Below, piece by piece: positions 31,913-63,809 of a stretch of DNA of 64,000 nt. The notes beneath the pieces are model-generated. The model saw only the letters and a program-made list of their open reading frames with translations. It searched no databases and was not told the origin of the DNA. Location: NCBI GenBank assembly GCA_010015585.1, contig ML975163.1, one strand, 5' to 3'. This DNA is from Eremomyces bilateralis CBS 781.70. Taxonomy: Eukaryota. The position numbers and the translations under genes were made by a program. Numbering within the stretch: the stretch's first letter is position 1; the number at the start of each line of letters is the position of its first letter.

Positions 31913-32150
31913 ATGGATATTTACGATCGAATGATGACGCTATGGATTGACAACGGCTACTTCCGAGAAATCGGGATGGTGTATCTCGAATACCAGCAGC
32001 ATATTAAACTAAGGAGACACTGTAGTTTGGCAGTGCGGGGGAATGCAAGCTGTCGGATTGTGTTGTGCAAGTGTTGAAGTGAGGCGGATGCAGGCGTGGA
32101 AAAGGATGGTTCTCGACCGCAGCACTAATTACAACTAGAATCTGAGGACC

Positions 32151-32208
32151 TGTGAAATTGCCGCCGAAAAGAGCGGTTTCTGACGCTGTTTTTGGCGGCA
32201 TTTCCACA
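32151..32208 (+). repeat. Palindromic site copy A (inverted arms around spacer GTTTCTGA)
   Basis: TGTGAAATTGCCGCCGAAAAGAGCG-GTTTCTGA-CGCTGTTTTTGGCGGCATTTCCACA; related copies at 41592-41643 (+) and 62794-62845 (-). Confidence 0.85.
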
Positions 32209-32591
32209 CGACCTGGTCACGAAAATCAACTCTTCTCCTCCCCAAACACCCCGTAATGCCAAGCGCATGTGACTCTGTCCATTATCAGTTTCTTGAGTTT
32301 CATGAATTTAGAAATCGGGATCCCGTTTCTGCACTCAACTCATCCCAACTTTCCAATATGCTCTGCCACCCTCTAGCCGCTACAGTCGGCAGCATCCAAA
32401 AATGATCGCATACAAAAGCCTACCATGCGCTGCCATGCCCTTCATCCTCTCATCCCATCCCTTCCTACCTGCTTCCACCTTCCCTTCTCCGGTATCCCTA
32501 CGGATTCGCTCTCTCGTATGCCGCCATACTCCCGGCTGGTCTTACCTTTCTTTCGCCTCTCTTTTCACTTTCTCTCTACCCGTGCTTCGCC

Positions 32592-35344
32592 ATGGGAAAG
32601 AGGGCGCTTCCTGCCGCCGACGCAGAGGAGCACCAGCACTGGACTCGGCCTATCCTCTGCGATGAGACCCGAGCGAGGCTCGAGCACTTTCGAAGCTTCG
32701 GACACCTTCCTCCAAACTTCAAGCCTAAAACACTTCAGGGTATCGCCGTAGTGGAGAGATATTGGCGCAGGTCGGTCACCTTTTTCGACATTGCTGGGCA
32801 GATAATGCTAACTGTCTCGATTGGGCCGGTAGGTACTGCGACCACCTAGGAGTAAACTATGTGGAACATCTCACTACAGAGGACCCCCCAGTTTATATGA
32901 GCTTCTTTGATTGGATGTACGAGTCTTCTAAGAAGAAGAAGTTACAATCATACGACGAGTATTGGAGGCGATTGAACCAGTACTTTACTCTCTTCACCCG
33001 CCATCCAATGAGTAACCACGTTCATCAACAAATACGACGGGTATGTTTGTGTACCTTCTATTCATCAAACCTCCCCTGCTGATCGAGTACCATTAGTTCC
33101 TTGAACATGTATTCCCGGCCGAACGCGAGATTTCAAGGCGTGCCAAGAGCAAGCATACTCTGACAATTGAGGAATATGGACTTTTCCAGAGGTATCTGTG
33201 GAAATATTCCTTCTATTTCCGCTGCGGCAACATGCTCGTTCAGCAATCCACAATTATGCTGTGGTCTTCAATCACGGGAACTCGACCTGGCGTGCTTCTG
33301 CCGGACAACTGTAGTCCTGACGCTTCATCTCGGAACGATGAAGACCAGCAAATCACTATTGCACCGAAACCGAAGAGACGGAAGCCGAACCAAACTTTCG
33401 TTAGCGATCTGCCGGAGTATGTCTCCATTGATCCCTCCCCAAAAACCGTTTGTTGGGAGGATATCGAACTCTTCTACCTCAGAAATCCAGAAGGCGGTAG
33501 AGACGTCCCGTGCGCAATTATTACCTTCCGGAATTTGAAGGGCAGACCAGAAGGCTCCGACGGGTATAATTCAACCTTTTCCTGGAAGTGTTTTTGCAGC
33601 AAAAAGGGTTGCTAATATATTTTTGGAACAGAACACGATTCTTCATGCATTGCGACTACCTGCTGACATATTGCCCGATCTTGCACATCGTGGCGATGGC
33701 GTTCCGCGACGGGGCCTTCGAAAACGAACGACTAACACCAGAACTTTTCTGGCGACTTCGAGTCCCGAAACGTCTACCGAGCCTGCCTCTAAGATAGAAG
33801 AAAGACAAACTGAAACTTCCAGTTCTCCGTCGCATGAAGCAAGCTCCTTACGGCTATGAAGTAGACCAGTTCCTGCCGATGAAGTACGACTCCAGTAATA
33901 GCGCACTGAAGCATATCGGAGAAGGGCTAGGGTACGAGGACCTACCAACTCATTATAACTTTCGACGCTGGGCTGCAAACGCTGTTAATCGTAAGCAATT
34001 TCGGAGAACGGTCCCTATTCTGCTTATCCTACCTTCCTTTTTGCCCGAGCCTCCATCCCTTGAACAATCGTAGAACTCGGCACTGATATCTACGCAGGTA
34101 ATTACACCGAGGCGGAGCGCATGAGGGTCCTCGGTCAATCTGGGAATCGCGTTTTTGAGAAACACTATCAAAGCGACTTCATCGGTGGTCTCCAACATGT
34201 TGTCTTGGTACGGCCGTCACAGACGGCTCTATGCAATGAAGCGCGGAAGTGTAGGAACAGAGATCCTCTAGCGCCAAAAGCACTCAGCGGCGAGCAGCTC
34301 AAAGTCGTCCGTGGGGATTCTCGGATTCTCCAACTAAGACAAGAGAGAATCGAACTAAAGAACGAGATGCGATTATTAGCGGGGACCGTAGAGGCTGCTA
34401 GAGATCTGTATCCGGAGCTTCACCAGAAACACGACCGGGTCTGCAAGAGGATGCATAGCGAAAGGAAGAGACTCCTTCGGGAAGCCAAGGAGAAGATGAG
34501 GGAGGACTACTACGATAGCATACCAATAATCGAAGTCGACAAGCAGATCGACCAACTCCTAGATAACCCAGGCGTAGACTCTTCGGATGGTGAGAACGAC
34601 GATGATGACTCGGACCCCCCGCCTCCCAAATACGTGTTTCAGGAGCGTGCACGTCTTGTGGACGCCTTCTACGGGCCGGACGCTGACACGCTTGATGGCG
34701 AACAGGACATCGGCCGACGGATCCAGGTCACAAAGGACATGATCGCACTTTGCGGGCTTTGGGAGCCGACCCGCCGAGGGAAGAGGTTCGACTGGAACAA
34801 GGATAACGAAGACATGGTTGATAACGTCATGAAGACAAAGCAGGAGCAGGACTCCAGTCCATGTCTCGACGAAACGAAATGTCCCACTGACGTTTGTATC
34901 ATATGCCCAAAATTGCATAGACGCAGGTTCCAGCGCATGGATTCGTTAAGACGTCACCTAATAAATCAACACCTGAGTCATCTGCCTGAAGGTGTTCCTC
35001 TCTCCTGCGCATAGGATACATGCGTAAGCAGATCTGCCTTCATCGAAATTAGAGCCTTCCTAAACCATATTGCCACGGTCCACGATTACGACGTTAAGAT
35101 TGGATCCCATTTCTTTGAGCGTTTCTGTCGCACGCAGCAAATAGGCGGGAATAGAAGACCTTCGACCGAGGATTCGAGTGCAGAGTCCTTAGAAGGTTTA
35201 TCGATCGACGGAATAGCCCCAAGCACGACAGTGACGGCGATGACGGATTCTGAATCAACACCGTCGTCGCCGCCGTATATAGATATTCTTGAAAGGATTG
35301 ACCCAATCATCCTGAAGGAGGGAAATGCGGAGTCGAAAGGCTAA
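32592..35344 (+). pseudogene. Starship captain, DUF3435 tyrosine recombinase with C-terminal C2H2-like fingers; two in-frame TAG codons
   Basis: Spliced ORF with SITGTRPGVLL (Arg), FRNLKG, CPILHIVAMAFRDGAF, THYNFRRWAANAVN, RMRVLGQSGNRVFEKHY (Tyr) and CIIC...SLRRHLINQH. TAG at 33795-33797 and 35012-35014. Confidence 0.85.
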
Positions 35345-36332
35345 GAAGTACGTTATGCCCCAGCATCCTGTCCATTCAGTCGAAATCTCAGCCGTCGGCC
35401 GCGATCCTGGCATTCGATAAATCCGAAATACGTGCCTTCAGCTTCAGGAAGAGGTGATGTAAAATTCGGAACGATCGAGAATAGAGCCCGGAATGGAGCT
35501 TGATGAAATGTAGTAGCTTAGATGAGGTGGATGGGGATGTACACTACAGGGAACTTATCGGGCTGCATCGCTTTCTTTGTCTCATCTACTCCTTATGGTT
35601 TTCTCTCCTTCATCCCCTTTCCCAGCACAATTTATCTAGATTTCGAAATTTTGAAAGGAATCGTCTCAGTCGTTAGCGCGTGCCATACGAGTCTATTCCT
35701 TTAGCACCCCCTCTGATCTTCGCAAGCGCTTTCGACGGAAACACTTGTCCAATATCAGGGACGGCAAGAGGATCGACTGCGGGGTTTGCAAGATGTCACT
35801 CAACTGCAAGACGCACTTGCAAAACCACGCGAAGAAAATACATGGGACAGTATCGTGAACTTCAATACTAAGTTATCGACGCTTGGCCCGAACGGGCTCC
35901 AAGCAAAGAAGCCCGTTCTGTTTCTATGCGCTTTCAGAGCCTTCCACGTTTACTTGTCACAGTATCCTTCCCGTACCATTCCGCACTTGTAACATTCTGC
36001 AGCTCGATTGATTGATTGATTGATTCATAGGCTGACCAAGCCGTTCCTTGCACGAACTGCTTCCGCTTCGGTACGATAACCCCTCTACTAATAGTCTTAC
36101 TTGCTGTTCTGTGCCTACGTACTTGTCAGGCCTTTCCTGGCCTTCCTCTGCTTCTGTTTACTAGTTATCGCTCGTCTACGCTGTGTATTTGAGTACTGTG
36201 GCTGGAACTGCCCGGAATTGCTCTAAGAGCCCAGTCCTAAGGATCATATTGGCTGCTTGTACTGCCATTGACGAGCTACAGAGAATGCGCTTGATGTCTC
36301 CTCTTCCCCGTAACATTTCGCAGCTCGTAGCA

Positions 36333-36545
36333 TGTCAGGCTGGGAGGATGCTAGTCTCGTGATACACGTGCATCCCTCTATATAAACGGTCGCAGCCATC
36401 ACAGAGTTCTTTCGTCCTCAAGGATCAGTCTGAGCCTTGATCTTAAGCCAGAAACAGCATAGATTTCATCAATCAAGCATCGCTAGTTACTCTCTTGCTA
36501 CTCGCTTACTCGTATCACGTTATTCACCCACTCTGTGTTGCGACA
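36333..36545 (+). mobile_element. Possible solo LTR
   Basis: ~210 bp starting TGTCA and ending GACA, with an internal TATATAAA. No matching TSD seen. Confidence 0.35.
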
Positions 36546-36595
36546 AAACAAACTTTACATATACCTGGAAGTGAGCGTATATCTCCACAGTCATC

Positions 36596-36890
36596 ACTCT
36601 CCCGTAACGCTCCAAAGCTCGTATCACTCCACGCCCATCTCTCCCGTAGCGCTCCAAAGCTCGTAATATTCCAGAGTTCATCTTTCCCGTGCCATTCCGC
36701 AGCTCGTAGCATTCCAAAGCTTCTGTCTCCCGTAATACTTCATAGCCCGTAGCGTTTCAAAGCTCGTATCATTCCAGGCTCATCTCTCCCGTAGCGCTCC
36801 AAAACTCGTAATATTCCAGAGTTCATATTTCCCGTGCCATTCCGCAGCTCGTAACATTCCAAAGCTTATTATTCCTGTATCGTTCCGCAG
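36596..36890. repeat. Degenerate ~40-bp minisatellite with ~145-bp higher-order duplication
   Basis: Units like CCCGTAGCGCTCCAAAGCTCGTAATATTCCAGAGTTCATCTTT recur; related units at ~35965 and ~36305. Confidence 0.8.
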
Positions 36891-37059
36891 CCTTCTAATC
36901 CCAGAAATTCTATCCCAGGAACACTATCCCAGAGCGTGCCCAGCCTCTTTGAAGAAAAGAAAAACACTGGTACTCAAATTGCGCATATGTTTACCCAAAA
37001 CAATCGCTACAACAGACAACAAAAACAAACACACGATCCCCAAAATCCCCAGGGACGGC

Positions 37060-37300
37060 ATCCCCACAAGGGATGGCATTCCACTGGGACCGACTGATAT
37101 TGGGGGCCAGAAATGGAGTGGGGATCCGCATGGATGGCGTTCCCACAAGGGATCCATAAGGACTCCCGAAAATAGATGCACTGATAAAGGGTGAGGTCAG
37201 AAACTCGAAATCCGCAGGGGTGGTATTCCCACAAGGGATGGCATTCCACTGGGACACCGCCTGATATCGGATAAGGCCAGAAATGGACTCGAAATCCGCA
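37060..37300. repeat. ~70-bp direct repeat (CCCACAAGGGATGGCATTCCACTGGGAC...GGCCAGAAATGGA...ATCCGCA)
   Basis: Copies at ~37062 and ~37227, with a partial copy at ~37141. Confidence 0.8.
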
Positions 37301-37666
37301 CAGTAGGCAATCCACCGGTCACCAGTGCCAAACTATTCGTAGCCCGAACGGGCTCCAGGCAAACAAGTCCGCTTTATTTCTATGCGCTTTCAGAGCCATA
37401 TTACGTATTAATTACCGCTGTTTTGGACAACCAAAAGTTCATAAAAGACAGGGGTGATTTGTTTCTAGGGTCCAGCATGAGCTTGATTTTGCATCGTCTG
37501 CTCAATTTAGCGATACCTTCTGTGTCGTTGTCAAGGGCTGGTTAGTTTTGGAGCTATAGGCAACTAGGAATTGTAAAATGTATAACTATGTGAAATTAAT
37601 AAAAACACGAATCGCTGCTGTTCCCTGGCGGCAAACGGTGAACCTCGTTGAATTCATCATCGAACT

Positions 37667-39128
37667 CTACTCTCTAAACAACCACTTTTCAAACTGGGCC
37701 GTATTTAGACCTTTCGGTACCATTTCCCTCATTGTCGTTCACATCATAGAACATAGTCCAAAGCTAATATGATTGGCTGGCTTCAACGCGAGTGACTTCA
37801 CCCTCTGCGTCTCGGGGCTGTCCTCACCCTCGCAGATAACCCTTGCTTCGTACGCTCTCTCCGCAAACACGCTTGCCCGAGCCTGATCTCCATGCGCGAT
37901 GCCGACTTGAAAGGCGTCGTAATAGAGCCTGGCGATGAGCGCCCCAGCATACCCGTCATATTCCTCTTGAAAGACTTGAAGCAGCGAGTGGCAGTCACTC
38001 AGACTCTCCTTCGGCCTAATCTGCATGCGGAATGGATCGCCGATGGCATTGTCGAGGTCTTGAATCAGTAAACGACGGCTGTCACTGGCTTGGAGCTCGG
38101 AAGGACGAGAGCATTCACGGCAATTGCAATCGAAACCGAAGGCTTCTTTCAGGAAGGCACGTCGTACAGTTGAAGTACCTCCGTAGTCATACGAGATTGT
38201 GACCTCCTCTCCGGTTTTGATTGGCCGGATCGCGTAGATGGTTTCGTGCTCCGCGTTGCTATCCCAGTTGTTGTGAGAGTTTGGAATACAGTTGTGATTG
38301 ATGAGGCAAATCGTAGGGTAGACTCCACCCACCACTGAGCCTGCGCCACAGGGTAGAGCATTGGTCTTAAAAGTGTTGCTAAACGGATGCTTTCCCGGGC
38401 AGTTGTTGTAAAGGGACAAAAATTGTCGTTGCGACGCTTTGGGCAATGCCCTTAGCCTGGCCGCGAGGATCAACTCCAACTCATTGGGCGGCATGGATTA
38501 AGCCGTAAGAACTGGCTTCTCACAAAGTATCCGAGTGCCGTTGGATATATTGAAACGGGCAATGAGACATTTGCCTTTTCTGGGAATGTCCTTAATTTCG
38601 AAAAGTGGGATACCAAGCTCATTGATGGGATTAGTACCGGTGAGGAGAGATGCGATGCTGGTATTGATCTCAGGCTCGTCTCGCTGTGAGTAAAGGGGTT
38701 AGATGTTGTCAAAGAGCAGGAACGAGACTCTACGAAGGCATGACTGACTTGCTCATAGGATCTGATTAACTCTGACTTCATTCCCGTCGTAATTGCCATA
38801 CTGGTCGTCACCTTCGTCCCAGTACTGGACACGGGAGCCGAAGTGAACCTTTGCAATTCTGGTAACAGTGTTGATATAGCTTGCTACTCTTGTAGCCGCT
38901 GCGATGATCCCCGAAACTTTCGAACTGAAATGCAGGAATTTGTGGCCCTTAAAAGGAAGTATAGGGTGTTCCCCAGCTTTGAATAGGATGTAATTCGGTT
39001 TTATCTCGACCTGGCTATCGTCTTTATAATGGTTCTTGATGAAGCCGACAAACCGGTTCCATTTGTGTCTATCAACGACTCCTTCAGATAGACAAGGGGA
39101 CCATATCGAAGCCAGCGTCAACTCCTAT
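37667..39128 (-). pseudogene. SET-domain (lysine methyltransferase-like) pseudogene
   Basis: TNALPCG...YPTICLINHNCIPN...GEEVTISY...FGFDCNCREC. Start appears as ATA, with frameshifts near 39100 and 38775, an in-frame TAA at ~38498 and a TGA at 37739. Confidence 0.85.
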
Positions 39129-39349
39129 AGCGGCACTTTCTAATTGAATTACGCAAGCAGTGGTACCAGGTAATGAAGGTCAAAGGAAACGAGTTTGTTG
39201 ATGCAATCATGCACTAGGAGAAAGTTGTTAAGGCGGTGAGTCGATAAGCGTCTGGGGGCTTTTGGGTTTTATTATTGTCAGAGTAGCTTTCGCCATACTT
39301 AGGGGTCTAGCTCGCTTGGCCGAAAATGGCTCTATCCTGTAGACTTGGG

Positions 39350-39490
39350 GGAGGGCGTTTGTAGGAAAGAGCGCTTGTAGGAGAGGGCGTTTGCAGGAGA
39401 GCATTTGCAGGAAGGCGTTTGTGGGTTTGCGTTTGAGGGCGTTTGTGGGTGGGTGTTTTTAGGTTTGCGTTTGTAGGTTTGTGTTTGATC
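39350..39490. repeat. Degenerate tandem GCGTTTG(T/C)AGG array
   Basis: About 8-9 copies of a GCGTTTG-like core. Confidence 0.7.
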
Positions 39491-39793
39491 ATGGGAGGAC
39501 GTTTTGTTTGATCGTAGGAGCTCATTCGTTCGTGGGGGAGGTTTCCGTACGGTGGGTTGAGATTGGGGATGGCATCAAGATCCTCCTCCTGTGAGCCCTC
39601 CTCCTGGAGGATCTTCTCCGGTAAGGAGAATGGCGTCGGTATAAGAGATCGGGGGGATACAAGAATTGAATGGATAGCACCCCTCTACTGCCGAGTAGGT
39701 CCAGCACTTACTCTTATGATAGATCCCGAATGCAGTGGTCTTATTCAGGCAAACGGATGGAGATTTCCATTTCAGGAATGATAACGTATATTG

Positions 39794-39843
39794 TGCCAAG
39801 ACACACCTGGAGCTGTATCCTAGGCTCCAGGTGTGTCTTGGCA
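39794..39843. repeat. Perfect 20-bp stem hairpin with 10-nt loop
   Basis: TGCCAAGACACACCTGGAGC-TGTATCCTAG-GCTCCAGGTGTGTCTTGGCA. Confidence 0.95.
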
Positions 39844-40703
39844 TGTCCTAGCTATGAACATGTATTTCCAATTAAAAATCCTGAAACATGACACGACGAA
39901 ATGCGCTCCACCGCACGCAACCCGTCACACGCAGCTCGGGTTCGGACGTTTCTTAGGGCACATGCTTAACAACCATACGCATTACTTCGCAGCCGAAGAT
40001 GTTGGCACGGCTTACTCTATAATCTTCTTTGCGTGTTTTTCTTACCACACGCTATTTGCTGGCAGGAATTTGGCCACATGCATACTCTCACACGCTTCCA
40101 GCCCTACATCCCCTTGCTCTGCACGACCGTTACCGTATACTTTCCGCGTTTGCAGTTTTGTTGTTGTAGGCTCCCCTAACTGGCACGCAACTCACCGCAC
40201 ACTCTTGAGCTTACGCTCAGCAGAGGGCCCTGCATGAACCGAGGGCTATTATACACTCCGCATTTTATGTATGCAGCCCAAACAACCTCCTTTAAATAGC
40301 TACGTGACCTGGTATTTCCCGAATGAGCCTCAAGCCAGGGTGTTGATCGAGCTCCGCGCTAAATATATCAACAGTCCTCTCGTGGTGGTTACTACTCGTA
40401 ACCTGTTCTGTTTCCATGCGCTTTTAGAGTGTCAGCCCTCAGTAGGGCGCAGGCCCTGTTTCTTGTAGTCGTTTCGTAGCGGTTCCTTCCTTCAACAACA
40501 GTCGAAAACAGGAAGACCGTATATGACCAGTTAACTAACCGTTCAAAAACCGTTAGAAGACTGTTCAAGAAAAATCAGGCCGTTGAAGCAAGTACTTGGC
40601 TACTTAACGGTAAAATAAACCATATCTTTCGCCCTGCTGCTGTCTTTTCACAAACTAAAAGTTCGGGAAAGACAGGGGTGATTTATTTCTAGGGTCTTAT
40701 AAG

Positions 40704-41198
40704 CTTATCTCAGTTGGGACTCAGACGGGATCTGGAAGATGGTTGTGGCGGTGCAGGCATCTTCAGATGCCGTCTGAGGACCATCTGCAGCATTTTGGTG
40801 GGCGCGTAGGTAAAAAGAGCGGATTTGGCCCCTACGGCGCACTAAACTCGACCAAAATTAGCGACAGGGGTCGCTCCAAAAGTCCAACTACACCAGCCCT
40901 TCGAAACAGCCGGTGCTAATCCTTTGTTATAGAATTATTTTGATATATTTCTTAATATACTATAAAAGAGCAGATTCTTTTACCTGTTACCTAGCCCCGC
41001 CTAAACTTTAAGCTAATTTCGAGTACTGAAAGTTGAAATGGTTGACTGAAACGACTGGGAACTCTGAAAACTTCAACTACACCATCACACAAACCTTACA
41101 AAAGGACCTCAGACGGTATCTGAAGATACCTTGGCTGCACCGCCACAGTGTAGTCACGTGCAGCATCTGAAGATACCGTCTGAGCTTGCTGAGATAAG
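40704..41198. mobile_element. Non-autonomous DNA transposon (MITE, ~495 bp) with long hairpin-containing TIRs
   Basis: Ends CTTATCTCAG/CTGAGATAAG; ~80-90-bp imperfect TIRs with CTCAGACGG and TGTGGCGGTGCAG; TATAAG(CTT) duplicated at 40698 and 41199. Confidence 0.85.
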
Positions 41199-42078
41199 TA
41201 TAAGCTTGAAGTCCACGTCTGGTACCTGTTGTTGCTGGAAAGGGGTTGTATCTGCGGCGAGCACCAAGTGCTTCATATTAAACAATGGCGAAGATGTCGT
41301 CGTACATGTGTCTTGGGGTAACGGACTGGACTCCTGGAGCAATTCCGGGTAGTCCCATCAGTGTTCAAATACACATAGCGAAGACGAGTGATTAGCGGTA
41401 TACGGAAGCAGAGGAGAGATAGGAAAGACCTGACAATTACATAGATATAGAATAGCTGTTCGAGCTAACAGTAAGGTGCAATAGCTCAGAGTAGAAGAGG
41501 AAGCAGTTCGTGCAAGGAACGGCTGGACTTCTGAAAGCGAAGGGCGGGGGCACAATATTTATAATTGTACGGAGTAACGTTGTGTGCTACCGAACTTGCC
41601 TCCAAAAACGGCGGTGTCTGATGCCGTTTTCAGAGGGCTTTCCGCTTAGGCGAAACGCTCTCGTTTCGTACCAGTGGTGCCCAAATCCCCCTGCCACAGT
41701 GCCAAGGCTTTGCACTCTCACAGACTTGCTTAAGCACTTGTAGAGGAAGGGGGCCGATTTTGAAATTCCAACTCTCAGTTTTCAGTTTTTCGAACTTCAC
41801 ATCTTCTATGTCTCCAGGTCAATTTCAGAAGCATGGCGGTGTCAAACGTCATGGCTCTGTTGCGGAGCTTCTCTTTGTTTTCGCACATAATAACCAATGT
41901 CCAGGCCCCGTCGCTCGATGGATCGCTCTGTCATTCCCGTTTCTCTGATAACTTTTTTTCTTGAGCCCTCCATGTTTTGCAGTTTCAGACCGATCTAATA
42001 TTATCTTGCTGCCTTCGGTAAATTGCCCTTTGCCCTCCTACGGGACCGCTCCATGCATCAATCGCCGAGATCATCGTA

Positions 42079-42560
42079 ATGGAAGGGGGAACAAGCCGCG
42101 CCCCTGCGGCAAAAAGGATACCACCACGAGACTCGGCGTATTATGAATCGCTCTATGCCGACGACCTAACCCCAACATTGCGCCTTATCACAGATGCGAC
42201 TGAGAGGGGAATTGGCTTTGTGTGGAAGAAGTGGACAGAATATAGGTTCAGGGCTAAAATTTACCAAGTTTCTTCACTAACGGCCTCTGATTTCCGACAC
42301 ACACCCTCAAAAAAACGCCAAGCGTTCTCTCACATTTTGCAACTGTCAGATCTTCACTTCGCCAAATCTAGCTCAAAAAAGCCCGTTCCATTTCTACTTC
42401 ACCAGCAACTCGTCAAGTCGGCTCTTTGAGTAGCTATAAGAACCGCATCAGAAGTTAGTTATGTACCCTAGAAACGGCCCTTGACGCTAGGCGAGATTTA
42501 CTAAACGTCGAAAGTGTATCTCTACAAGAATTTTGTGCGGAAACGAAAGTGGAAGAGTGA
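42079..42560 (+). pseudogene. Possible truncated, degenerate captain-like N-terminal remnant
   Basis: MEGGTSRAPAAKRIPPRDSAYYESLYADDLTPTLRLITDATERGIGFVWKKWTE resembles captain first exons ending at a W-x-x intron. It lies ~510 bp after palindrome B; downstream frames contain many stops. Confidence 0.35.
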
Positions 42561-42629
42561 TTTAAGCATCAGTATTCCGTACTGTAAACCAAGCGCATGC
42601 GTGAAATGCTTCTTTGGATCTCTTCAACC

Positions 42630-51363: not shown

Positions 51364-51691
51364 GGAGAAGGAAAGAACTAGGATTGCGACTACAGTGCGG
51401 ATGAGACTGGTATGGCACAACGGCCGGACTCGGATTGATGAAAGGCTGAGAAGAAGAGGTATCAAGACTAGTCAGAGGACCAATTCAGACGAATTCGAGC
51501 AGCTCGATTCAATGCCGTTGTCATCAACTGCAACACAGGATTGAACGACCCTGTTCAAATTGATGTTGACCATATACATTACAACTTGAATGCCGGCAGA
51601 ACTAGCCAAAAGATGAATTATGATATACTACGATTGCTGAGCAACATCCTTCACAAACAAACCACGGACACGGCCTCAAATCTTCTTAAAA

Positions 51692-54600
51692 TTATGCTGC
51701 TTCCGTCACCTCATACTTATCCGATCTGAACCTCAGCCTGCCTTCACGCTCCAACCGGTTCGGGTCGAGATACAACTTCAGCCCCATATCCGACTGGCCA
51801 AGATTAAACACTCTCGCGAGGATGTATACTCTGTCCGAAGCCGATTCTATGGGTAGTGTGGTGTCTATCATGAGTTCGTACTGGTTGCGGCCAACGTAGA
51901 GTGGCGTGGTGAGGCGACATGTGGAGGCTTTCACCTCAATATGGTACTTTGGTTGCTTCCCTGCCCAGAGGTCAGACCGGAGATAGCCATTGGCGACCAG
52001 TAAGCCGGTGAATTTGCTCTTGTGGTCTTCATAAACGATGTCTGAAGTCTCAGGTAATGACCAATTCGTTAGCGCTCTATAATCACGATGTGACTAAACG
52101 AGATTTCGAATCCTAGACTGCCAACTCTCAAGGCCGAAGTTCGGTAATTGGAGACTCTTCAACCATTCGAACATCTACTCAAATTAGCAACACTCATAGG
52201 CCGAACGGCGGACTTACAAAGAGTTCTCCAGCTGCTCCAACCTTGAAGTCTCTCTGGGTACCAGCCACCGCCACATCGACCTCGAACTTTGAAAAGCAAG
52301 GCTCAAGAGATACAGCGGAAGTTTCACCAACACGCGGAAATGGCGGCCCGCGCCGAGCGCTGTCGACCGCCACCTCGAGAAGCATAGTGTAGCGAGTAGG
52401 ATCTTCTTGAGTATCTGGTGTACTGAAGACTGACGTCGGGGGAGTTAAGTTCGAACCTGGCGAAAGCCCAGAGCTCCTTTGAGAAATGAAGTGGCTGGAG
52501 CTTGTACTGGACGGGCGGAAGGCAAGTTGCGCCTGCTCCAGGAAAGTAGGTCGAGGCGGTATGACCGGCCCAATCTCTCCAGTATCATCTGGTAACTGGA
52601 ACGTTGGATCGCCGTCGTCTTCTTCCGGTTCAGACGAATCCAACTCTACATCTTCAGGCCGATTGACACAAGCCACGGAAATGACTCCAGCGTTTTCTAG
52701 AATTTCGTCAACGTCTGCAAGCCCGTGGGCTGAGAATATGCTGCCCAGTTCTCCAACATAACTGTTCGGGGCGCCGAAGTGATTGAGAATAGCTTGGGGC
52801 AGGTGAGTCAGAAGGCATCGATACCGAAGCCGGGGGTCCCTCGGGATGTATACTTTCAGGCCAGCTGAATTCTCAAGACCACCTCCTTCATTGCTTTCAA
52901 CATTGCTATCCTCGTTGTCTACGTCTTCCAGGTGGCAGTATGCCTTCCCAGAAACCATTGTGACTGGCCTGCCATCCTGGTAGGTAGTCAGTGTCTTTGA
53001 AAATTCTTCACTAATCAGGACAGTTATGTTCTGAAGCTTCTTGAAACATTCGGCTGGGTCATCGCGAGCCGTAGTGCATCTCGCATGAGCAGCGTACCTA
53101 GTTTAATCAGTATTGATCCAATGCTAGTAATAAACACTCACCGGCAAATCGCATATGCCTTTCTTCTTAACTTGGTGGTCATTGAGTGATCGATCGAGCT
53201 TCTGGATGCCGTCGTCTCAGCTGCGACTGTTCCGGAAAGGTATCGATTCCGGAGACCTAGCCCAATGAGAAAGGCCTCCATTTCGTGGACTTCCTCCTTG
53301 GAGAAATCCAACGTTTTGAGCTCTCCTCGGAAGAGAGTTTCGTATTCCTGTCGATCGACGATAGCGAAGTCCTCCTTGCCATTCATCCAAGCGAGTGTTC
53401 CATCGGGGAGGCGAACGGGGAAGCATTTGCTGTCGAAGACCATTGCTAGATCACCCGCAGTAGGACTGAACTGACAAATGTTCCTGATGAGTTGCTTTAT
53501 TGAATCGCTGCTTGGCGATTTGGATGCTTCCCGCTTTAGTGCTTGGATGTATAGAGGAAGCTTCGGCTCTTCAATCCCAAGGACCGTCAGGAAGAAAGGT
53601 TTCTGCGCGGAGTACTCCGTTGCAATAGAGAATTTCTCGGGCAGGCGCACAGTATCGTTGACCCAAACGCAAGTTGATGGACTATGCCACATCTGGTCCT
53701 GGAAGTTATAGATAAGCTTATCCGATTCGAAACGTGATCTAGCTGAATTAGCATAGGAATTAAGTGAGTAGAAGTGCGGTTAATTTACTTAATGGATTCC
53801 TTCCAAGCGTTGTCCCCTCGAATCTCCGAGTGGAGCTTATTATAGAGAAGTTTGAGGATTTGGTCTCTTCTTGCCACACGGTTTGGATTTTTCAAGTAGG
53901 AAATGTAACTCAAGTAATCGTCCACTCCCGGATCAGTCGGAACTGAAAGACCATCGACGAAGAATGTCTTAAGAGATTCGTATCCAGGTAGTCGAGCGAG
54001 GTTAGGATGATGCGTGTACCAAGTCGGAGTATTCCATCGGCAGAAACTCGGGTAGCACCATGTGTCTTCCCGAGTGAAGATATAATTCCTTTCGGAGGAA
54101 CACTCAAACAGCTCTCTAGTATTGGCCGGTAAGAAGAGGAAGCTGCATTGCATACCACCGAACATGGAGGGGCCTTCAATAGCACCGAAGATTGTTCTGT
54201 AACTGTTAGTTCTACTCCCAGACTGGGGCATTCATCAGGTACCTGAGAGTGGTTTTGTGACTTGGTGTCGAGCAGAAGCCTAGAAGTCTGGAGTATATCT
54301 CCGACATTACAATGTATCCCGGGTTTTTCTTTTCGCGAGCCTTCTTCAACAGTAGCAACCAGAAGCAAAAATCTTCTTCGTACTGCACTCCTAAGTGACG
54401 CAAGAAACTCCAGTCGGACACGCCGTCATCCTCCATTCCATCAAGCTCCTTGATGAATCCGAAACCGCTCTGAAGCTCCAGTCGATCAACGATAGCTTTC
54501 AATTTTGGGAGTGGAAGATAGGTTGAGCTCAATGGTGAGAGATCATCTGAATGGAGTATCGGAACTCGGGCGAGCTTCTGGAAATCTGCTTTCCATGGGA

Positions 54601-56948
54601 TGTCGAAGTCAACATGAGACCATTGCCGCTTGAGAACTCCGAGAACAATTGAATGAGCCTTTTGAGTTGCCAGGTATTTGAACTCTTCAGCAATCGCTGC
54701 GCCAGCTCTAATCCTGGGCTCTGGTATGGACTTGACCTGGATGAATTCTTCAAGCCACTCGATGCCAGACTTGTCATATCTTCGTTCGCAAGCTCCAAAC
54801 ACTTCATAGTAGCGTGGATGCAAAAATTGAATCTCTCCCTTTAGCTGCTTCGGAACTGGATGGCCGATGACATTGGCTGCGCTGCAAGGGTCTGTGCTGC
54901 TCGGGCTGTACCACCATCTGGTCGACAAATCAGGGACTTGTTTCAAAAGATCTTTGCTCACAACCATAAGAGAAATTCTCTGTCCCTGAGACGGTAGATC
55001 GGTATGGTTCCAGAATACAAACTTGAGATGGTCGAGAGCTGTGTCCATTGTCCAGTCATCCTTCCTGCAGGCCTGTTCTAGCAATGGAAATATTCGCTGG
55101 GGAGCACATTCCGACACTCCGAGTTCTCGAAACAGCTCTGTCCTTTCGTCGTTGATAAGCGCCCGTGAATCAACTAGACTCAGGGGAAGATCTCGCGGAA
55201 TATCGATCCCTCGGCATTTTGGGAAATAGATCGATGCATTAAATGATGGAACCCATCGCTCATCCTTGAGAAGTGGCACTAATGGCAGCTTCTTAATACC
55301 GATTGCAAGTTGTTCTGAAGTGGCCACTGCTCGAAGCAAGGACCTGGAGAGATATGTATGCCATCGTGATTCCGCTGGCGTCGTGCGCAGCCGAGAGTAG
55401 CCGTTGGGTTTCAAGTCACAACGCAAGAGCCCAATGAATTCTGCGGTGGACAACGTTTCGAGGCCGAGTTTTCGGAGGATCGGAATGTCAAGAGTGGCGT
55501 CGTACTTATCTGAGACGTAGCGACTGTGAAGGTGGGGTGTAGTACAGTCGCACTCGGACAGCAGAGGTCGGTTTTCAAAGTCTCTCAAAGAGGTCGGTAC
55601 AAGTCTCAATGATCTGGCGAGTGTGGTACCGCGGTCCCCCAATGGAATGAAACAACTGTGATCCATGAGCTGGGAGAACAGCCGACTTTGAAGGGTGCCC
55701 CAAAACTCATCGGGCACCCCATTCGTTGCCAGATAGCGGAGCCATGAATATTTCAAGGTTGGTTGATCCAAAAATCCAGAGGTAGTAGTCTCCAAGAAAA
55801 GATTGACAATTTCGTCCAGAATACGTCGGTTCCAAGGGCAATTGGAAACATCTTCACGGCTCGCCTGAGTTATGAAGTCAGATTGGATAAGAAACTAGTC
55901 AGGTCAGCGTCGGCAGTTTTTGTCAAGAGAGTCTAGAGGATACCTTGAAACCAACTTTCCGGAGAGGAAGAAAGGCGAATACATGCTGCTCCTCAACAGT
56001 TGGAACGTCGTCCTGATTGAGAGGAAAGGCCAAAAACACATCTGCTGTCGTGATACCTGTTCTTGCTTCTTCCTCGGGCATATTAGTGATTGATTTGCTC
56101 GCGATCCAGTAGTTGAGATTGACAGTGTCATGTTTGATGGTTCGAGCGATACAAGCTCTATTATTCTCGATCGACAATTCGTACACCTTGCTGACAATCT
56201 TCTCGTGTCTTTCGATGCGAATTGAAAGCTTTTTTAATTTCCGTAGAAATAGTAGAAGGGTGTCCGGAAGAGCCTCAAACTCGCGAAGCAGGGCGTCCTT
56301 ATCGACCCTATCATTCAGGTGAAGAATGATGCGGGTCCGAACACCCAACAACTCATCGGGAGGTTCCACGAGAGGTGTGACCATTCCAAGTCCAGAATCC
56401 GGTAATCCACGATTGTACTCGAATGCAAACGAATATGGTTCCGACTGAACGTGAACTTTGCAGGCAACTTTGAAGACAGATTTGAATCCAATACCTTTCT
56501 CGCCAACATAGCCTTCGATTCCCGACTTGGTGCTTTCTCCTACCCTGCAGATTGCCCGGGTATTGGCCTCGGAGAATCCATCCTCATTGGAGTCGATTAT
56601 AATACGCTTGGCTGAAACAGTGAATGAGAGATGAGGACGCTCCTTGTTTCCATTAGCGATGGAGTACTTATTGTCTTCCGCGTTCTGGATCAATTCGTAC
56701 ACGAAGCGGGTATCCTTCGAGTACAAATTACGGGACAGTCTGGGGAAGTCAGTCAAAAGCATTTAAAGAGAATAGAGTACCTACGCCTCTGTGCTTGCAC
56801 AAGCCAGCCGTCGAGCTCCGTCGACGCTTTTGATGATATGCGGGCGATTCACTCGAAGATATTCGCGATCCTCGGCTGAAAGCCAACCATTCTCGGTCGC
56901 CAGTTCCTGGATCAGAGCCTTCGCTTCTTCCCTGCTTGTGCTAGTCAT
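51692..56948 (-). pseudogene. Sacsin/NO VEIN-like protein 2 with an in-frame TAG just before the nuclease motif
   Basis: LYSKDTRFVYELIQNAEDNKY, VGEKGIGFKSVF, VGAAGELF...WQSRIRNLV*SHRDY...ETSDIVYED...YHIEVKAST; stop at 52094-52096. Confidence 0.8.
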
Positions 56949-57712: not shown

Positions 57713-58004
57713 TAGGGTGGGTGTAAGAAATGAAATAAATAGGAGTCTGTAAATTACCGAATTAATGCAAGAAAGTAGTTTATTTCTTTCCATTATTTTC
57801 TTACCTAATCAGAAATCTCGTAGAAGCCCCTTGGCGGTTGGTTTTCCCGACCATAAATGTTCGTGCCTTAGGCATCAACATACGATGCGCTAAACAAATT
57901 GGGTTAGCGTTTTTTGCGAAATTTACATCGTATTCTTTGTTTCTTACACAAATTTGGGGATTTCTTCGCAACAAATGTTTATTTCATAAATTTTACCCAC
58001 CCTA
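57713..58004. mobile_element. hAT-type MITE (292 bp)
   Basis: TIRs TAGGGTGGGT...ATGAAATAAA; perfect 8-bp TSD GTGCTATG at 57705-57712 and 58005-58012. Confidence 0.92.
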
Positions 58005-59269: not shown

Positions 59270-59351
59270 GGTGAGCAGTGGATGAGAAGTAAGTGAGCAG
59301 TGGGTGAGCAGTGGGTGTGTAGTGGGTGAGGGCGGTGAGGCAGTGGGTGAG
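59270..59351. repeat. Short tandem GTGAGCAGTGG array
   Basis: About 6-7 degenerate 11-12-bp units. Confidence 0.7.
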
Positions 59352-59788
59352 TATCTGAGTATTGAGTACTCCGTAATCTGAGTGCTACAGAATTACCATT
59401 TGTAGTCTAGCGCCATTATATTTAGGTATAGCGCTGTTTTCCATTTTTAATCTTCACGTCCTTCAAAACATAAATAGTAATTCTGAGAGAGTAGTATATC
59501 ATGTGACCATGAGGGTGTAAATGGAGCGGCAGTGAGGGTGTGAACGGAGCACCAACGGGTGTGAAAGGAGCCTCACCCGTCCCTGGTAAGGCACCCCGGT
59601 CTTTGAGCACTACAGTCTGCAGCCATCAAGGGGAGAGATGCAACGAGGCAGACAGCTGTGCCGCATTGTATCAAGTTTAATAACCCCTCAAGCCTTCATT
59701 AAATGTGTTCCAAGTTCGTGTTTCTCTTAATCTCACCGACTCTTAACTCAGTTTTATTATCATCTGTACCTTATATCCTACTTCAACT

Positions 59789-62098
59789 ATGCCTCTCAAT
59801 CTGACTCTGGATGATGAATCTCTGCCTCTTACACGGAGTATTGCAAATGAGAACTTCCCGCAACAAGGCCAAATTGACTGGGTGTCATTATCGCGAGGCA
59901 CCATTAACTTCTCCTTTGGCGTCCTCTCCAGGCTATCTGCGGCGTCTGTGGATCCATATACCCTCTCGTTGGGTCATTTTATCGGGAGTAATTTCCAATT
60001 TTCGTGCACTGGACGGCAGAACATTGAACAAACGCTTAGAGGCCTCAAATCCTTTGGTGGTGTTGGCGATGTTCTCTGGTTCGGGTTCGGCGTCAAACAT
60101 CTTATTCGTGCCATATCGGTTACCGAACAGGGTGCAATGTTGGTTGCTCTCTGCGCAACGCTCGCAGAATGCTTTCCAGATGAGATAAGCGCGGAAGTAC
60201 TCAGCCACCTTGCGAAAGGCACCGCGGACTTGAAAGTTGTACCATCATTGAGCGAATGGCGCTCCTTAGTGCGCTGTTGCGCGGGAACTGTCGCCACAAC
60301 ACCGTTTCCGTTGCGGGCAGAGACACTCATGGGAGTTCATGTTGGGATCGCTACTGGATCATCCGTTGGAAACCCGGATCCACATGGCTTAGCAGAGACA
60401 TTGCTTGGTATAGGCAAGCTCTCGCGCGGTGTGTGGAAGTCGATCACGATTACCGGACCAAGGGAGGTAGGGTGGATTGCAGCAGTGGCTGAATGGCTGT
60501 TCGGACTCACAGTCACCATCCTCAACGAGGACGGCGACGTGAAATATTCGAGTAGTCGAATTGACCATGTCGCGAGCATCATTATTTTACCCGAAAATAC
60601 GTCTGAAACAGTGGGAAAAGCTCCCATGTTACACGTTGTGGATAAATCATTCGAACTCCGCACCGCTCTGGACCTTTTTAACCTTAATTCGAGTGTACCT
60701 TTAGGTGGCGATAATGTTACTCGCATCTGTGGTCGAGTCAAGTGGCACCAGTGTTTGCATGCGGCATTTGGTATCCACTTCGAAAAGCTGATGACGATGA
60801 AGACAACATTTTGCGAGATATTTGCAAGTGCCTCACGGGTTTTCAAGGCCATTGCGAATTGCAATAAAGACATACAAACAGGGGACTCCTCCAGAAATCG
60901 GCTCTATACTGATCGTTCCTTCGGCATTGGACTTATACAGCACTCGGCGAATTGGCTCCCTGAACTCTCGCCTGCGGCGTCCACCATTCAAAATTGTTAC
61001 GACAACACCCCAGATGCGGAAGCTAGAAGCAAGTACGAGGCGAGGCTTGCGCTGCTGGCAGTGTCTTGTAAATGCAGGTTATGCGACCCACCAAAGAGTC
61101 GTGTGCGCAAAGATGATGCTGACCTTCGGTGCCTCGTTGTGATCACCGAGACAATAATTGTGCTTTGCAGATTATTGTCGACGCTTGAACTTGTCGAATC
61201 GCCTTTTCCTCTCCTGCGAGGTATTCAGAAATTGTACGGCGTGCAAGCGACCAGACGCTGCAGATTTCGAGATCAAGAGACAGATATGGGCGCGGTAGTG
61301 CATATACTGGATGATCCGCGCGTAGAAGGCACTGCACCGCTACTTGCTGCGCTATCGCTCTTCGCTGGACGTTCAGCGCTCAACCTAGACAAGAACGTGA
61401 TATGGCCTTGTGCGGTGTCAGCTGGAGGAATCTGTGTTTATCTGAATACCCTTCATGAGCCTTCTGATGATAAGGAGGTTGTAAACCAGATCTGTGTGGT
61501 TCCAGGACAGATCGAGTGCAACGAGAAGCCATTCTACTGCGTTGAAGATTGGCCTTACTCGAATGAGAATCTCTCTCGCTGGTTGGACGGTCAGGCAGAG
61601 TGTCGAATGCGGGAACCCACAGGGGACGAGCGTTGGACCAAGATGACTAACAGCTCTTTGATGTGTAGTGTCAAGGTTGAAGTTAAGGAGACAGTTCGCT
61701 CTCTAGCCATAAGATACAACATCATGGATGATCGGAACCAGCCAACACACCTATCTTTCAGCCCGATGCTTTTGGCTCAAGGGGCTTCGCATTCGCGCGG
61801 TCTAGTCCATTGCCCAGAATCGCATCGGGTTCAACCCATGGTTGCTTCTGGAAGCCCATCTGAGGAGCTATTAAAACGTCTCGAAGAAACAGGGATCACA
61901 TTTCGTTTGTTGAAAGCTCCAGTGCTAGGGCGATGCGCGGCATTGACGAGTTTTGGTCACAATCTGATTCTTCAAGAGAATGAGTGTCTAGACTGTTGCA
62001 TCAAATCAGCTCTAAGCAGCGACAGCACTGAGATTATCGTCATTTCACAAACCGAAAGAGGAAGCGCATCTGACTCGGTGTTCAGCGAAAATAGATAG
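59789..62098 (+). CDS. Intronless 769-aa fungal protein of unknown function
   Basis: Long uninterrupted ORF with QQGQIDWVSLS, VLWFGFGVKHLIR, CKCRLC and a C-terminal ECLDCC. Confidence 0.85.
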   Translation: MPLNLTLDDESLPLTRSIANENFPQQGQIDWVSLSRGTINFSFGVLSRLSAASVDPYTLSLGHFIGSNFQFSCTGRQNIEQTLRGLKSFGGVGDVLWFGFGVKHLIRAISVTEQGAMLVALCATLAECFPDEISAEVLSHLAKGTADLKVVPSLSEWRSLVRCCAGTVATTPFPLRAETLMGVHVGIATGSSVGNPDPHGLAETLLGIGKLSRGVWKSITITGPREVGWIAAVAEWLFGLTVTILNEDGDVKYSSSRIDHVASIIILPENTSETVGKAPMLHVVDKSFELRTALDLFNLNSSVPLGGDNVTRICGRVKWHQCLHAAFGIHFEKLMTMKTTFCEIFASASRVFKAIANCNKDIQTGDSSRNRLYTDRSFGIGLIQHSANWLPELSPAASTIQNCYDNTPDAEARSKYEARLALLAVSCKCRLCDPPKSRVRKDDADLRCLVVITETIIVLCRLLSTLELVESPFPLLRGIQKLYGVQATRRCRFRDQETDMGAVVHILDDPRVEGTAPLLAALSLFAGRSALNLDKNVIWPCAVSAGGICVYLNTLHEPSDDKEVVNQICVVPGQIECNEKPFYCVEDWPYSNENLSRWLDGQAECRMREPTGDERWTKMTNSSLMCSVKVEVKETVRSLAIRYNIMDDRNQPTHLSFSPMLLAQGASHSRGLVHCPESHRVQPMVASGSPSEELLKRLEETGITFRLLKAPVLGRCAALTSFGHNLILQENECLDCCIKSALSSDSTEIIVISQTERGSASDSVFSENR

Positions 62099-63809
62099 TA
62101 GTTTACTACCACAGATATTGAATCAGACATTTCACAATCGAGAGTACTACGTTTGTCTTTTTGTTAATAATTATCATGGATGTAAGCCAGGTTTGTCAAT
62201 GACGAAAACTTGCAGAGCAATCTGAAAAGGCTATGTTGGAATGTGAGCCAATTATGTAGACTAGACCTATACTCGAAAGAAATCCTGATTTGGCTCTTCA
62301 AGATGTGGAAACAAACAGGGCAAGTTTCTGCGGTATATGATTCGGGATCGATCAAGCATGAACAGCAGGTGCTCTCTGTGCTCCTGTGTCCTCACTCCAA
62401 GCAAAGAAAAGAACAGGAACGGGCACGACGAAACGATCAATCGAGTGACGGCCCTTAACATTGGTAATTATATGCGAAGGCAGAGGGAGGCTCTACAGCG
62501 GAGCTATAGTATTTAACAGTGTCATTTTCCGAAATTAGCATAGAGATATAGCAGTTGCTGACACGGTTTGGATGCGCAAGGTCTGCGATTACCAAGTTCC
62601 ATTAATCTAAACTGAAGAGAGAGAAGGAAGAAACCTCCCAGCGTCTCTGCGCGCAAGATATAGAAGATACTTCCTTTGTTCCTATCTCCTTTGTGCCTAT
62701 CTCCTTTGTGCCATCCACTAGCCACATCCCTGTGGCGTCAGCCATACTCAAGGGCTCAGGCCACAGGCCTGGGACCATAACAGTTGCGAAAGTCGAAAAC
62801 CCTCCAAAAACGGCGTCAGAAACCTCCGTGTCTGGAGGCAATTTCTGTAGCACACAAAGTTACTCCGTAGGGAACGAAGGGTTCGCGCCCGATGGAGGAA
62901 ATCTCGCGCCGCCAACAGGAGTTCCGGTTCGCGAGATGCCCGGGGTTGTCGATAGGAGCGTGCATCTCCGATCCAAGATGGCATATGGGCGCCCGGTAAA
63001 GGATAAGGGGAATTTGAATTGTGAATTGCACGAGGACAGGGATAGTTGCCACTTAAGTATTCGGGGCCGCTGCGGTGGAAGACGCTCTGCACTCGCTATC
63101 CTATCGCCACGGCTCGACCGCTCTTCTACTTGCATGCGCAACCCCGGAATTTACCCCTGAGTTTGCCTCGCCGCTCTTGCCGCCAGTCCACGACTTGCAA
63201 GAGGATGTGCATTCTACACCCAAGGCATGGATATACCATTCTGTCCTGGTTAGCGTGCCATCAGTAATATTGTTTGGGGGGTGCGTCCAAAAATAGCGGA
63301 AGGTGAAGCGGTAACATGGATTGACATTGATGCGGTCTGCTTGATATCTTTCGTTTTCATCTCCCTTTCAGTCCACGACCAGTGACGGCCAGGTATAATA
63401 TGCGACGACGCTCTCATCCCTATGCACACGCCCAAGGTTAGAGGAGAAAATGGTCACTACAAAATTCCATCGTCGCTGGATCCGAGATCGTACACAAGCT
63501 GCTTGACTCAAAGATAAGGGGCTGCCTCTGTCTATAAGAGCGCATGGTTGCGAGAAGTGTAATAATTGGGTTGGAGGAAATCTCAATGGTCGTGCTGGGC
63601 CACTAACCTCGAGTAGCCAGGGGTATCGGTAGTCAGTGGACCGTTATCCCGCGGGTAGATCCAGCTGCTCACGTTTAGATGATCGTAGAAATTCTAGTCC
63701 ACGAGACCACATGCAATGGCAACCGAGCAATTAGATCCACGGGCTTTTAAGTTCGCATGGATGGGTTGGCGTGCAAGAGCTGGAACAGCCACACCGCAAA
63801 GCACACTCG

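Follow-up and report, generated by a model that had tools for sequence, protein, structure and literature searches.

The closest described relatives of the locus analysed here are two sorts of Starship. Hephaestus of Paecilomyces variotii and Nebuchadnezzar of Aspergillus fumigatus, a member of the same family, represent the first. In the published accounts, the captain of Hephaestus starts 451 bp from the element end, the joined ends cross over at their terminal TT//AC, junction reads are reported to show a circular intermediate, and the sequences at the termini reportedly affect expression of the captain. The second sort is represented by Tardis h1 of A. fumigatus and its relatives in other Aspergillus species, for which the literature gives a direct repeat of 9–11 bp, CTACGGAGTA, and a terminal inverted repeat (TIR), tctgcggtgacggcg; the Tardis motif is there called a subject for future work. 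The window, that is, the stretch of 64,000 nucleotides of Eremomyces bilateralis DNA analysed here, contains three structures that recall these ends, designated A, B and C (Table 1).

Element A begins like Hephaestus. Its first 13 nt, TTACAACTAGAAT, fit both TTACA(N5)AAT and TTAC(N7)A and match the published Hephaestus 5' edge exactly, both in the reverse complement of primer AUB319 and in the starfish S7 TIR-up of paevar1. The 13-nt sequence GAGGACCTGTGAA is the TIR in 11 of the 12 rows for Nebuchadnezzar h1/h2 in mBio 2025 Table S3, the 12th row carrying a question mark. The 25 nt that precede palindrome A, together with its first 3 nt, are the direct repeat and TIR published for the Hephaestus family. 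Published Starship 5' ends were compared over the first 34 nt only, and there, counted by eye against the Hephaestus edge, 28 of the 34 nucleotides are identical in A. The captain gene of A also conforms to the family arrangement as given in those accounts, in which a DUF3435 captain points inward from about 460 bp: it points inward and starts 463 bp inside the terminus. DUF3435 is detected by Pfam with E values of 1e-9 and 9e-34, and tblastn yields five collinear blocks (32607–32771, 32831–33040, 33097–33564, 33633–33992 and 34100–35101) separated by four intron-sized gaps. Element A differs from the described members of the family in that its captain contains two in-frame TAG stops (33795–33797 and 35012–35014), in that the best protein matches of this captain are only 47–49% identical over the C-terminal 316 aa, and in that no 3' end, which would consist of the TIR in inverted orientation and the direct repeat, was found in the window. 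Inverted GAGGACCTGTGAA with up to three mismatches gave 13 matches in the window against 19.5 expected, none of them above chance. Two candidate 3' ends of A were discarded as being at chance level: 51579–51591, which matches the direct repeat at 12 of 13 positions and has no adjoining TIR, and 50342–50351. The 3' end may lie past base 64000 or be lost. Alignment of the captain with genome and viral contig collections gave no confirmed locus.

Table 1. Features of the three element ends in the window (positions in the window; strand as read for each feature)
Feature	Position	Strand	Evidence or remark
Element A 5' terminus TTACAACTAGAAT, direct repeat / target-homology part	32129..32141	+	copy boundaries, published edge
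Element A 13-nt terminal inverted repeat GAGGACCTGTGAA	32144..32156	+	single exact match in window
Palindrome A, 52 bp, centre GTTTCTGA	32154..32205	+	18/22 arm pairs, fold, extended arms
Captain pseudogene, DUF3435 tyrosine recombinase	32592..35344	+	Pfam, tblastn blocks, stop codons
Element B terminal module: TACGGAGTA (41568-41576), 15 nt, palindrome B (41592-41643)	41568..41643	+	
Second block common to B/C ends, 71% over 145 nt, non-coding	41800..41944	+	partner 62415-62557 (-)
Element C 3' end: inverted terminal repeat (59397-59376), then direct repeat TACGGAGTA (59375-59367)	59367..59397	-	
769-aa ORF within element C, antisense to element, no family found	59789..62098	+	
Element C terminal module: TACGGAGTA (62869-62861), 15 nt, palindrome C (62845-62794)	62794..62869	-	

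All three ends carry the same imperfect 52-bp palindrome, which an initial annotation of this DNA had likened to lox and FRT sites. Its three copies are well established: a degenerate 41-nt pattern derived from them matches the window only at 32158–32198 (+), 41596–41636 (+) and 62801–62841 (−) and matches none of 100 shuffles, while an nhmmer search with a profile covering the outermost 86 nt recovers the same three places with E values of 4e-23 to 1e-25, the remaining matches with E < 0.1 being reverse-strand self-matches of palindromes A and B only. No match to Rfam was obtained over the whole window at gathering thresholds. The copies are identical at 39/52 positions for A and B, as originally counted, at 40/52 for A and C (40 matches had been given, over a length of 51) and at 42/52 for B and C, and 35 of the 52 columns are invariant. 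A recount of arm pairing and centres also confirmed the inverted arms and the 8-bp centre between them, which has the same sequence in A and C (GTTTCTGA; GTGTCTGA in B; 32176–32183 in A, 41614–41621 in B). This centre is better conserved than any other part of the palindrome, a fact that a simple two-half-site model leaves unaccounted for. As palindromes, B and C are far weaker than A. Complementary arm pairs number 18 of 22 in A and 14 of 22 in B and in C, where 8 of the 22 are non-Watson–Crick, one of them a G–T wobble; the DNA fold of A (−18.8 kcal/mol) has a z score of −8.0 relative to shuffles, as against −3.2 for B and −3.1 for C; and in A the arms can be extended to 31 nt (32145–32175 with 32184–32214, 81%). 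In all three copies the palindrome starts exactly 24 nt inward from the terminal TAC. The distance from the end of palindrome A to the captain ATG, put at about 390 bp in the initial annotation, is 386 nt.

Elements B and C are related along an 80-nt inverted repeat (41568–41647 with 62790–62869, 84%) and a second block further inward. Both start with a Tardis-type word, TACGGAGTA(A), which is the direct repeat (CTACGGAGTA) published for Tardis; in the window TACGGAGTA occurs at 41568 (+), 62869 (−) and 59375 (−). On the other hand, the repeat is followed in neither B nor C by the TIR listed for Tardis, a captain is lacking in both, and the sequence behind the repeat resembles a Hephaestus-type end rather than Tardis. 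A tblastn search with 35 captains detected none downstream of B or C, and the ORF at 42076–42429, considered as a captain stump after B, was rejected on the grounds that it has no homologue among longer proteins and no tblastn match. Element C possesses its own 3' end, which has an exact 9-mer and, in inverted orientation, the exact 11-mer GTGCTACAGAA in common with its 5' end; TACGGAGTA stands at both ends in direct orientation. C is therefore a 3.5-kb unit running from 62869 down to 59367 on the minus strand. The long ORF within it has no Pfam match and no usable Atlas match, and its Atlas model has a pLDDT of 0.29. The palindrome is absent from the 3' end of C, the sole 3' end examined, 59367–59520 containing no inverted repeat. 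No 3' end of B was found in the window; a candidate at 42867–42831 (−) was not accepted, as its alignment score of 33 compares with a background of 26–30. The possibility that B and C are the two ends of one 21-kb element was rejected because both carry 5'-type features (palindrome and second block) and because the direct repeat of C is inverted relative to that of B.

Contigs of three public runs, X1 and X2 (both from the probable source sample) and X3 (a divergent organism, whose contigs give no cover across most of the element), were used to locate copy boundaries. Four other contigs in X1 and four others in X2 start at 32129 with unlike flanks, and so do, at 41568/41567, four contigs in X2 and four plus three in X3. 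Depth at 32129 and at 41567/41568 is about 5–7 times that of a single copy. The terminal TTAC/TAC, rather than the palindrome centres, is thus where copies begin, and among the joints listed (15 of 28, in a comparison covering A and B) none links two centres.

Comparison of the two types of end singles out the palindrome as the sole segment conserved between them. A and B/C agree at 15–17 of 22 arm positions and at 7–8 of the 8 positions of the centre, while the neighbouring segments (3/9, 5–6/15 and 5–6/24) agree at random level. The captain-less B and C retain the palindrome at the same offset from the terminus, and it is also retained in the copies of another organism (X3 pieces 41567–41667 and 41598–41708, 81–87%).

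The explanation that I favour, and consider reasonably probable as a whole, is that a terminal module of 76 bp, with the motif as its inner 52 bp, makes up the captain-proximal (5') end of each of three separate Starship-type transposons: A would be the 5' terminus of a Starship of the Hephaestus family, with two stop codons in its captain, C that of a 3.5-kb captain-less derivative and B that of a related captain-less copy. The module would be made up, in order, of a 9-bp direct repeat providing target homology, 15 bp, and the palindrome. Strand exchange is predicted to occur at the terminal T(T)AC, as in Hephaestus, and not within the 8-bp centre, which lies about 50 bp from the Hephaestus-type crossover position. 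The outer left arm would correspond to the inner part of the TIR and be common to both ends, and in the A. calidoustus element the published 27-nt TIR-up and TIR-down do reach the left-arm position at both ends. The right arm would be a second, inverted copy of the inner terminal repeat, seen only at 5' ends. Because the left arm belongs to both ends and the right arm to the 5' end only, the palindrome is read as a cis-acting accessory site. It might bind captain protomers in inverted orientation and, once bound, identify the 5' end while the ends synapse or the circle forms; captain binding and a role in synapsis, taken on their own, I propose more tentatively, from the arrangement of the arms and by analogy. 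Extra recombinase or transposase sites, such as the arm-type sites of lambda attP and the multiple end-binding sites of Mu, Tn7 and hAT elements, make the ends of those DNAs unequal. The likeness lies in an extra site inside one end, for which binding is here a candidate property; the number and spacing of the sites differ.

Several other explanations were considered. The palindrome could be a functionless inherited inverted duplication of the terminal repeat, in which matching changes arose by chance or by repair within the palindrome. The double changes themselves agree with this. Position pair 10/43 is G–C in A and T–A in B and C, and pair 19/34 is A–T in A and G–C in B and C, as the initial annotation pointed out when it took them as evidence of conserved symmetry. 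Both compensatory pairs are real, but with three sequences they are not significant: at least two such pairs were reached in 135 of 500 shuffles, placing the 12 arm differences at random yields at least two with P ~0.07, and, B and C being close relatives, only two lineages are compared. The degeneracy of B and C, with 8 of 22 pairs non-Watson–Crick, points the same way. A duplication devoid of function is nevertheless unlikely, given that A-type and B/C-type ends resemble each other in the palindrome alone, with sequence at random level on both sides, and given its 81–87% retention in X3.

It is likewise unlikely that the palindrome is a promoter element or operator, bound by a transcription factor of the host or by the captain itself, that controls captain transcription from the 463-bp upstream region. 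The palindrome does lie in that region, and the reported effect of Hephaestus terminal sequences on captain expression would fit such a function, but in B and C, which have no captain to control, the motif persists at an unchanged offset amid neighbouring sequence that has decayed to random. Less probable again is a folded single-strand or cruciform site recognised by its structure, like integron attC or CTX phage attP. Symmetry retained through two double changes and the strong fold of copy A are what such a site would display; the centre and much of the arms are, however, conserved as sequence, with two-thirds of the columns invariant, B and C fold weakly, the covariation is not significant, and it is from junction reads that the circular intermediate of Hephaestus is reported. 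I know of no single-stranded stage in the life of Starships.

The proposal of the initial annotation was that the palindromes are lox/FRT-like core sites, with the 8-bp centre as the crossover spacer cut by the captain, so that A and B would recombine to give a deletion (excision) and A and C an inversion. The resemblance to loxP, FRT and dif is genuine, in that inverted arms of at least 13–14 nt surround an 8-bp asymmetric centre that is the same in A and C, although the arms are 11–13 nt long in those sites and 22–31 nt in palindrome A. Several observations run against this function, which is very improbable. The boundaries of the copies are at the terminal TTAC/TAC instead of the centre; in the related Hephaestus, too, circle junction and integration place the crossover (TT//AC) at the terminus, some 50 bp from where the palindrome centre lies; the arms are unlike the sequence around TTAC; no centres are linked among the joints listed (15 of 28, covering A and B); and C pairs with its own 3' end (59367–59397). 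What survives of the claim is the link to a tyrosine-recombinase element and possible captain binding, supported by the fixed offset at three Starship-type 5' ends, one of which has a DUF3435 captain: the palindromes are candidate recognition sites of the recombinase and probably not places of cutting and rejoining. Finally, an unrelated MITE or host repeat lying near the captain by chance can practically be dismissed, despite ends that are multi-copy in two organisms, as A is, from its terminus up to the palindrome, the end known from published Hephaestus-family elements and the offset is fixed in 3/3 copies.

The view that no such site had been described for Starships holds for the palindrome itself, which was not found in the literature searched, and not for the repeats flanking it, which were already published. 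No mention of a palindrome behind the Hephaestus/Nebuchadnezzar TIR was encountered in the available parts of these sources, where sequences could be compared up to nucleotide 34. A full-text search for the end motifs returned only primers and the mBio paper; B/C-type terminal words had no match in the accessible starfish supplement, nor had Hephaestus- and Tardis-type end words in the MBE 2022 supplement. A metagenome scan with a pattern specifying 22 bases gave a single match, in a bacterial-looking coding region with no captain, which was attributed to chance.

Returning to the palindrome as part of a 5'-terminal module, these 52 bp are the only thing common to ends with two different target homologies and are kept in captain-less copies, and are therefore a concrete candidate for the captain recognition site. 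A wider extrapolation from these sequences, possible though doubtful, is that Starship 5' ends in general possess an accessory site immediately inward of the TIR, palindromic and conserved, missing at 3' ends and common to the Hephaestus-type TTAC and Tardis-type TACGGAGTA lineages, which would bind the captain, perhaps via its C-terminal zinc-finger-like region, and set end asymmetry and the direction of recombination. If this were true, it would be the first cis element to be defined for recognition by the captain; if the palindrome is dispensable, the finding amounts to an ordinary annotation of three Starship ends. The captain-less elements also show features of MITEs or other non-autonomous derivatives: B-type ends are multi-copy with sharp termini, and C has both ends and no captain. 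The Tardis-type TACGGAGTA motif is over-represented in Aspergillus genomes, and the many captain-less copies ending in this motif may be one reason for it.

All three ~52-bp palindromes of the window (A, B and C), each composed of an 8-bp centre between inverted 22-nt arms, are in place at the coordinates that the initial annotation had given them. A 41-nt degenerate pattern derived from A, B and C matched the window only at 32158-32198 (+), 41596-41636 (+) and 62801-62841 (-), and gave no match in 100 shuffles of the sequence. Likewise, an nhmmer profile of the terminal 86 nt recovered the three places with E-values of 4e-23 to 1e-25, the remaining matches in the window with E <0.1 being only reverse-strand self-matches of palindromes A and B. 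The palindromes are identical at 39/52 (A-B), 40/52 (A-C) and 42/52 (B-C) positions, and 18 of 22 arm pairs are complementary in A, against 14 of 22 in B and 14 of 22 in C; the inverted arms of A reach 31 nt (32145-32175 with 32184-32214, 81%). The double changes at motif positions 10/43 and 19/34, put forward earlier as a sign of conserved symmetry, are both real but carry little weight, since the three sequences represent two lineages. Two compensatory-type pairs were reached in 135 of 500 shuffles, and with the 12 arm differences placed at random two or more arise with P ~0.07.

Coordinates of features in the window
Feature	Position	Strand	Remark
Terminal TAC, element A	32130	+	
Palindrome A	32154-32205	+	
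Captain of A (DUF3435)	32592-35344	+	start at 32592
In-frame TAG codons of the captain	33795-33797 and 35012-35014	+	homologue has Trp at both
Terminal TAC, element B	41568	+	
Palindrome B	41592-41643	+	
Terminal TAC, element C	62869	-	
Palindrome C	62845-62794	-	
C 3' end, inverted terminal-repeat copy	59397-59376	-	includes exact 11-mer GTGCTACAGAA on the other strand
C 3' end, direct repeat	59375-59367	-	exact TACGGAGTA, direct orientation
Small palindrome	62729-62767		15-nt arms, 87%
~200-nt inverted repeats	36039-36237 and 41323-41524		76-97% in three segments
SET-domain ORF	37739-38497	-	
Tandem array	36593-36857		period ~42-43 nt
Tandem array	39369-39486		period 14 nt
High-copy repeat	40676-41342		
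73-nt piece	42127-42200		
Large paralogous gene	43170-47910	-	N-terminal sacsin/HATPase-like domain (Pfam SACS, E 4e-8)
Large paralogous gene	51692-56762	-	N-terminal sacsin/HATPase-like domain (Pfam SACS, E 3e-10)

Each palindrome starts 24 nt inward of the terminal TAC of a Starship-type transposon (elements A, B and C). When A is compared with B or C, identity is 3/9 over the first 9 nt and 5-6/15 over the following 15 nt, rises to 15-17/22, 7-8/8 and 15-17/22 in the left arm, centre and right arm, and is 5-6/24 just inside the palindrome. B and C are highly similar from the terminus to the final palindrome base, beyond which identity drops to 6/24. Ends of the two target homologies thus have only the palindrome in common, and the conserved terminal module extends inward no further than the palindrome. 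The outer, left arm of the palindrome overlaps the published terminal inverted repeat (TIR); the 27-nt 'TIR up' and 'TIR down' of A. calidoustus both run into left-arm position (starfish table S7), as does the 3' end of C. At this 3' end, the only one available, nothing corresponds to the right arm (no inverted repeat within 59367-59520) and the palindrome part of the terminal-86-nt profile has no match.

Element A opens at 32129 with TTACAACTAGAAT, followed by CTG and GAGGACCTGTGAA. The first 13 nt, TTACAACTAGAAT, are identical to the Hephaestus 5' edge, taken as the reverse complement of primer AUB319 (PNAS 2023 supplement) and as the P. variotii 'TIR up' (starfish table S7), and conform to the target motifs TTAC(N7)A and TTACA(N5)AAT of PNAS 2023 and mBio 2025 (Table 1), respectively. 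GAGGACCTGTGAA is the TIR of Nebuchadnezzar h1 and h2 in 11 of 12 rows of mBio 2025 Table S3, the 12th carrying '?'. With a full-length homologue as tblastn query, the captain (the Starship DUF3435 tyrosine recombinase gene) was found in five collinear blocks, with intron-sized gaps at the four boundaries, and is interrupted by the two in-frame TAG codons. The edge, the TIR and the interrupted DUF3435 gene thus identify A as the 5' end of a Starship of the Hephaestus family whose captain is inactivated, and the earlier suggestion that assays should use a repaired captain was apt. The 3' end of A was not found in the window.

Elements B and C both open with TACGGAGTA, the direct repeat of many Aspergillus Starships (28 direct-repeat rows and one TIR row, 29 in total), discussed as the Tardis motif in mBio 2025 (with Table S3). 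Common to B and C are an 80-nt inverted repeat (84%) and, further inward, a second block (71% over 145 nt). Downstream of either, tblastn detected no captain homology, and no homologue was found for the ORF after B. The 3' end that belongs to C lies 3.5 kb downstream on the minus strand, where an inverted terminal-repeat copy is followed by the direct repeat; this makes C the 5' end of a unit of 3.5 kb without a captain and with one orphan 769-aa ORF. B and C face each other, both as 5' ends, and were on that account rejected as the two ends of one element. No 3' end of B was found in the window. The small palindrome lies ~30 nt inside palindrome C and has no counterpart in B.

Copy number was assessed by aligning contigs of three sequencing runs to 24001-44000 of the window; X1 and X2 share a single sample, which is probably the source, and X3 is of a different organism. 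Against a single-copy host flank (X1 depth ~190-240), summed contig depth reaches 1280 in the bin with the A terminus and does not fall back to single-copy level before ~42676. Four contigs in X1 and four in X2 start at 32129, and four in X2 and 4+3 in X3 at 41568/41567, in both cases with unlike flanks, which indicates that A-type and B-type ends belong to multi-copy families bounded by the terminal TAC. X3 pieces over 41567-41667 and 41598-41708 show ~81-87% identity, and joints of the kind 32227 to 34558 suggest copies with internal deletions. At 33796, where the window reads TAG, the sole contig in X1 and in X2 has G (Trp codon) at a depth of ~2x single copy, so that another copy or copies are intact at that captain codon. 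Between window 32005-42676 and the other copies in X1, C>T (126) and G>A (92) exceed each transversion class (10-21), a RIP-like pattern. Alongside this C>T/G>A excess, each of the two captain stops is a TAG at a Trp position of the homologue. Within the ORF after B, the 73-nt piece, a conserved short element, occurs in three X3 contigs with loose ends on both sides.

The initial annotation had proposed that the palindromes may be lox/FRT-like captain binding or recombination sites, in excision (A x B) or inversion (A x C) geometry. Its link to a tyrosine-recombinase element stands. According to a 2026 preprint, however, reads of Hephaestus span a circle junction at TT//AC, a synthetic circle integrates at the expected target in a captain-dependent manner, and the linear form has a captain upstream region of 451 bp; PNAS 2023 reports clean excision and TTAC(N7)A targets. 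Together with the copy boundaries at the terminal TAC, these data locate strand exchange to the end of the element, ~50 bp away from the centre of the palindrome. The palindromes are therefore unlikely to be crossover sites for excision or inversion among A, B and C.

As the best remaining reading, I infer that the palindrome is a putative accessory cis-acting binding module. The 5' end would then offer two inverted TIR-like half-sites and the 3' end one, an imbalance that would make the element ends unequal. That B and C, which have no captain, keep the palindrome favours mobilisation over captain transcription as its role. A plain two-half-site model leaves the high conservation of the 8-bp centre unexplained. 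A hairpin or attC-like site, and a palindrome with no function of its own, are less probable readings. The accessory module is a testable candidate for captain recognition, on comparative evidence that is thin.

With elements A, B and C, known Starship lineages gain new members, whose direct repeats and TIR are already published. A palindrome behind the TIR is not mentioned in the PNAS 2023 passages or the 2026-preprint Results, nor in the starfish paper, whose three 'palindrom' passages concern target sites, nor among the full-text matches listed on subterminal or palindromic sites of Starships or captains. Published Starship 5' ends were compared to nt 34.

Between captain and B, the repeat-rich stretch holds the two tandem arrays and a 5.5-kb unit (36039-41524) that is bounded by the ~200-nt inverted repeats, encloses the SET-domain ORF, ends 44 bp before B and looks like another cargo-carrying inverted-repeat transposon. 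Fragments of its repeat occur in multiple copies in X1 and X2 and are found in X3 as well. The high-copy repeat just upstream of B has a summed depth of 3845 in X1, against ~200 for single copy. The sacsin/HATPase-like gene pair lies between B and C in single-copy sequence.
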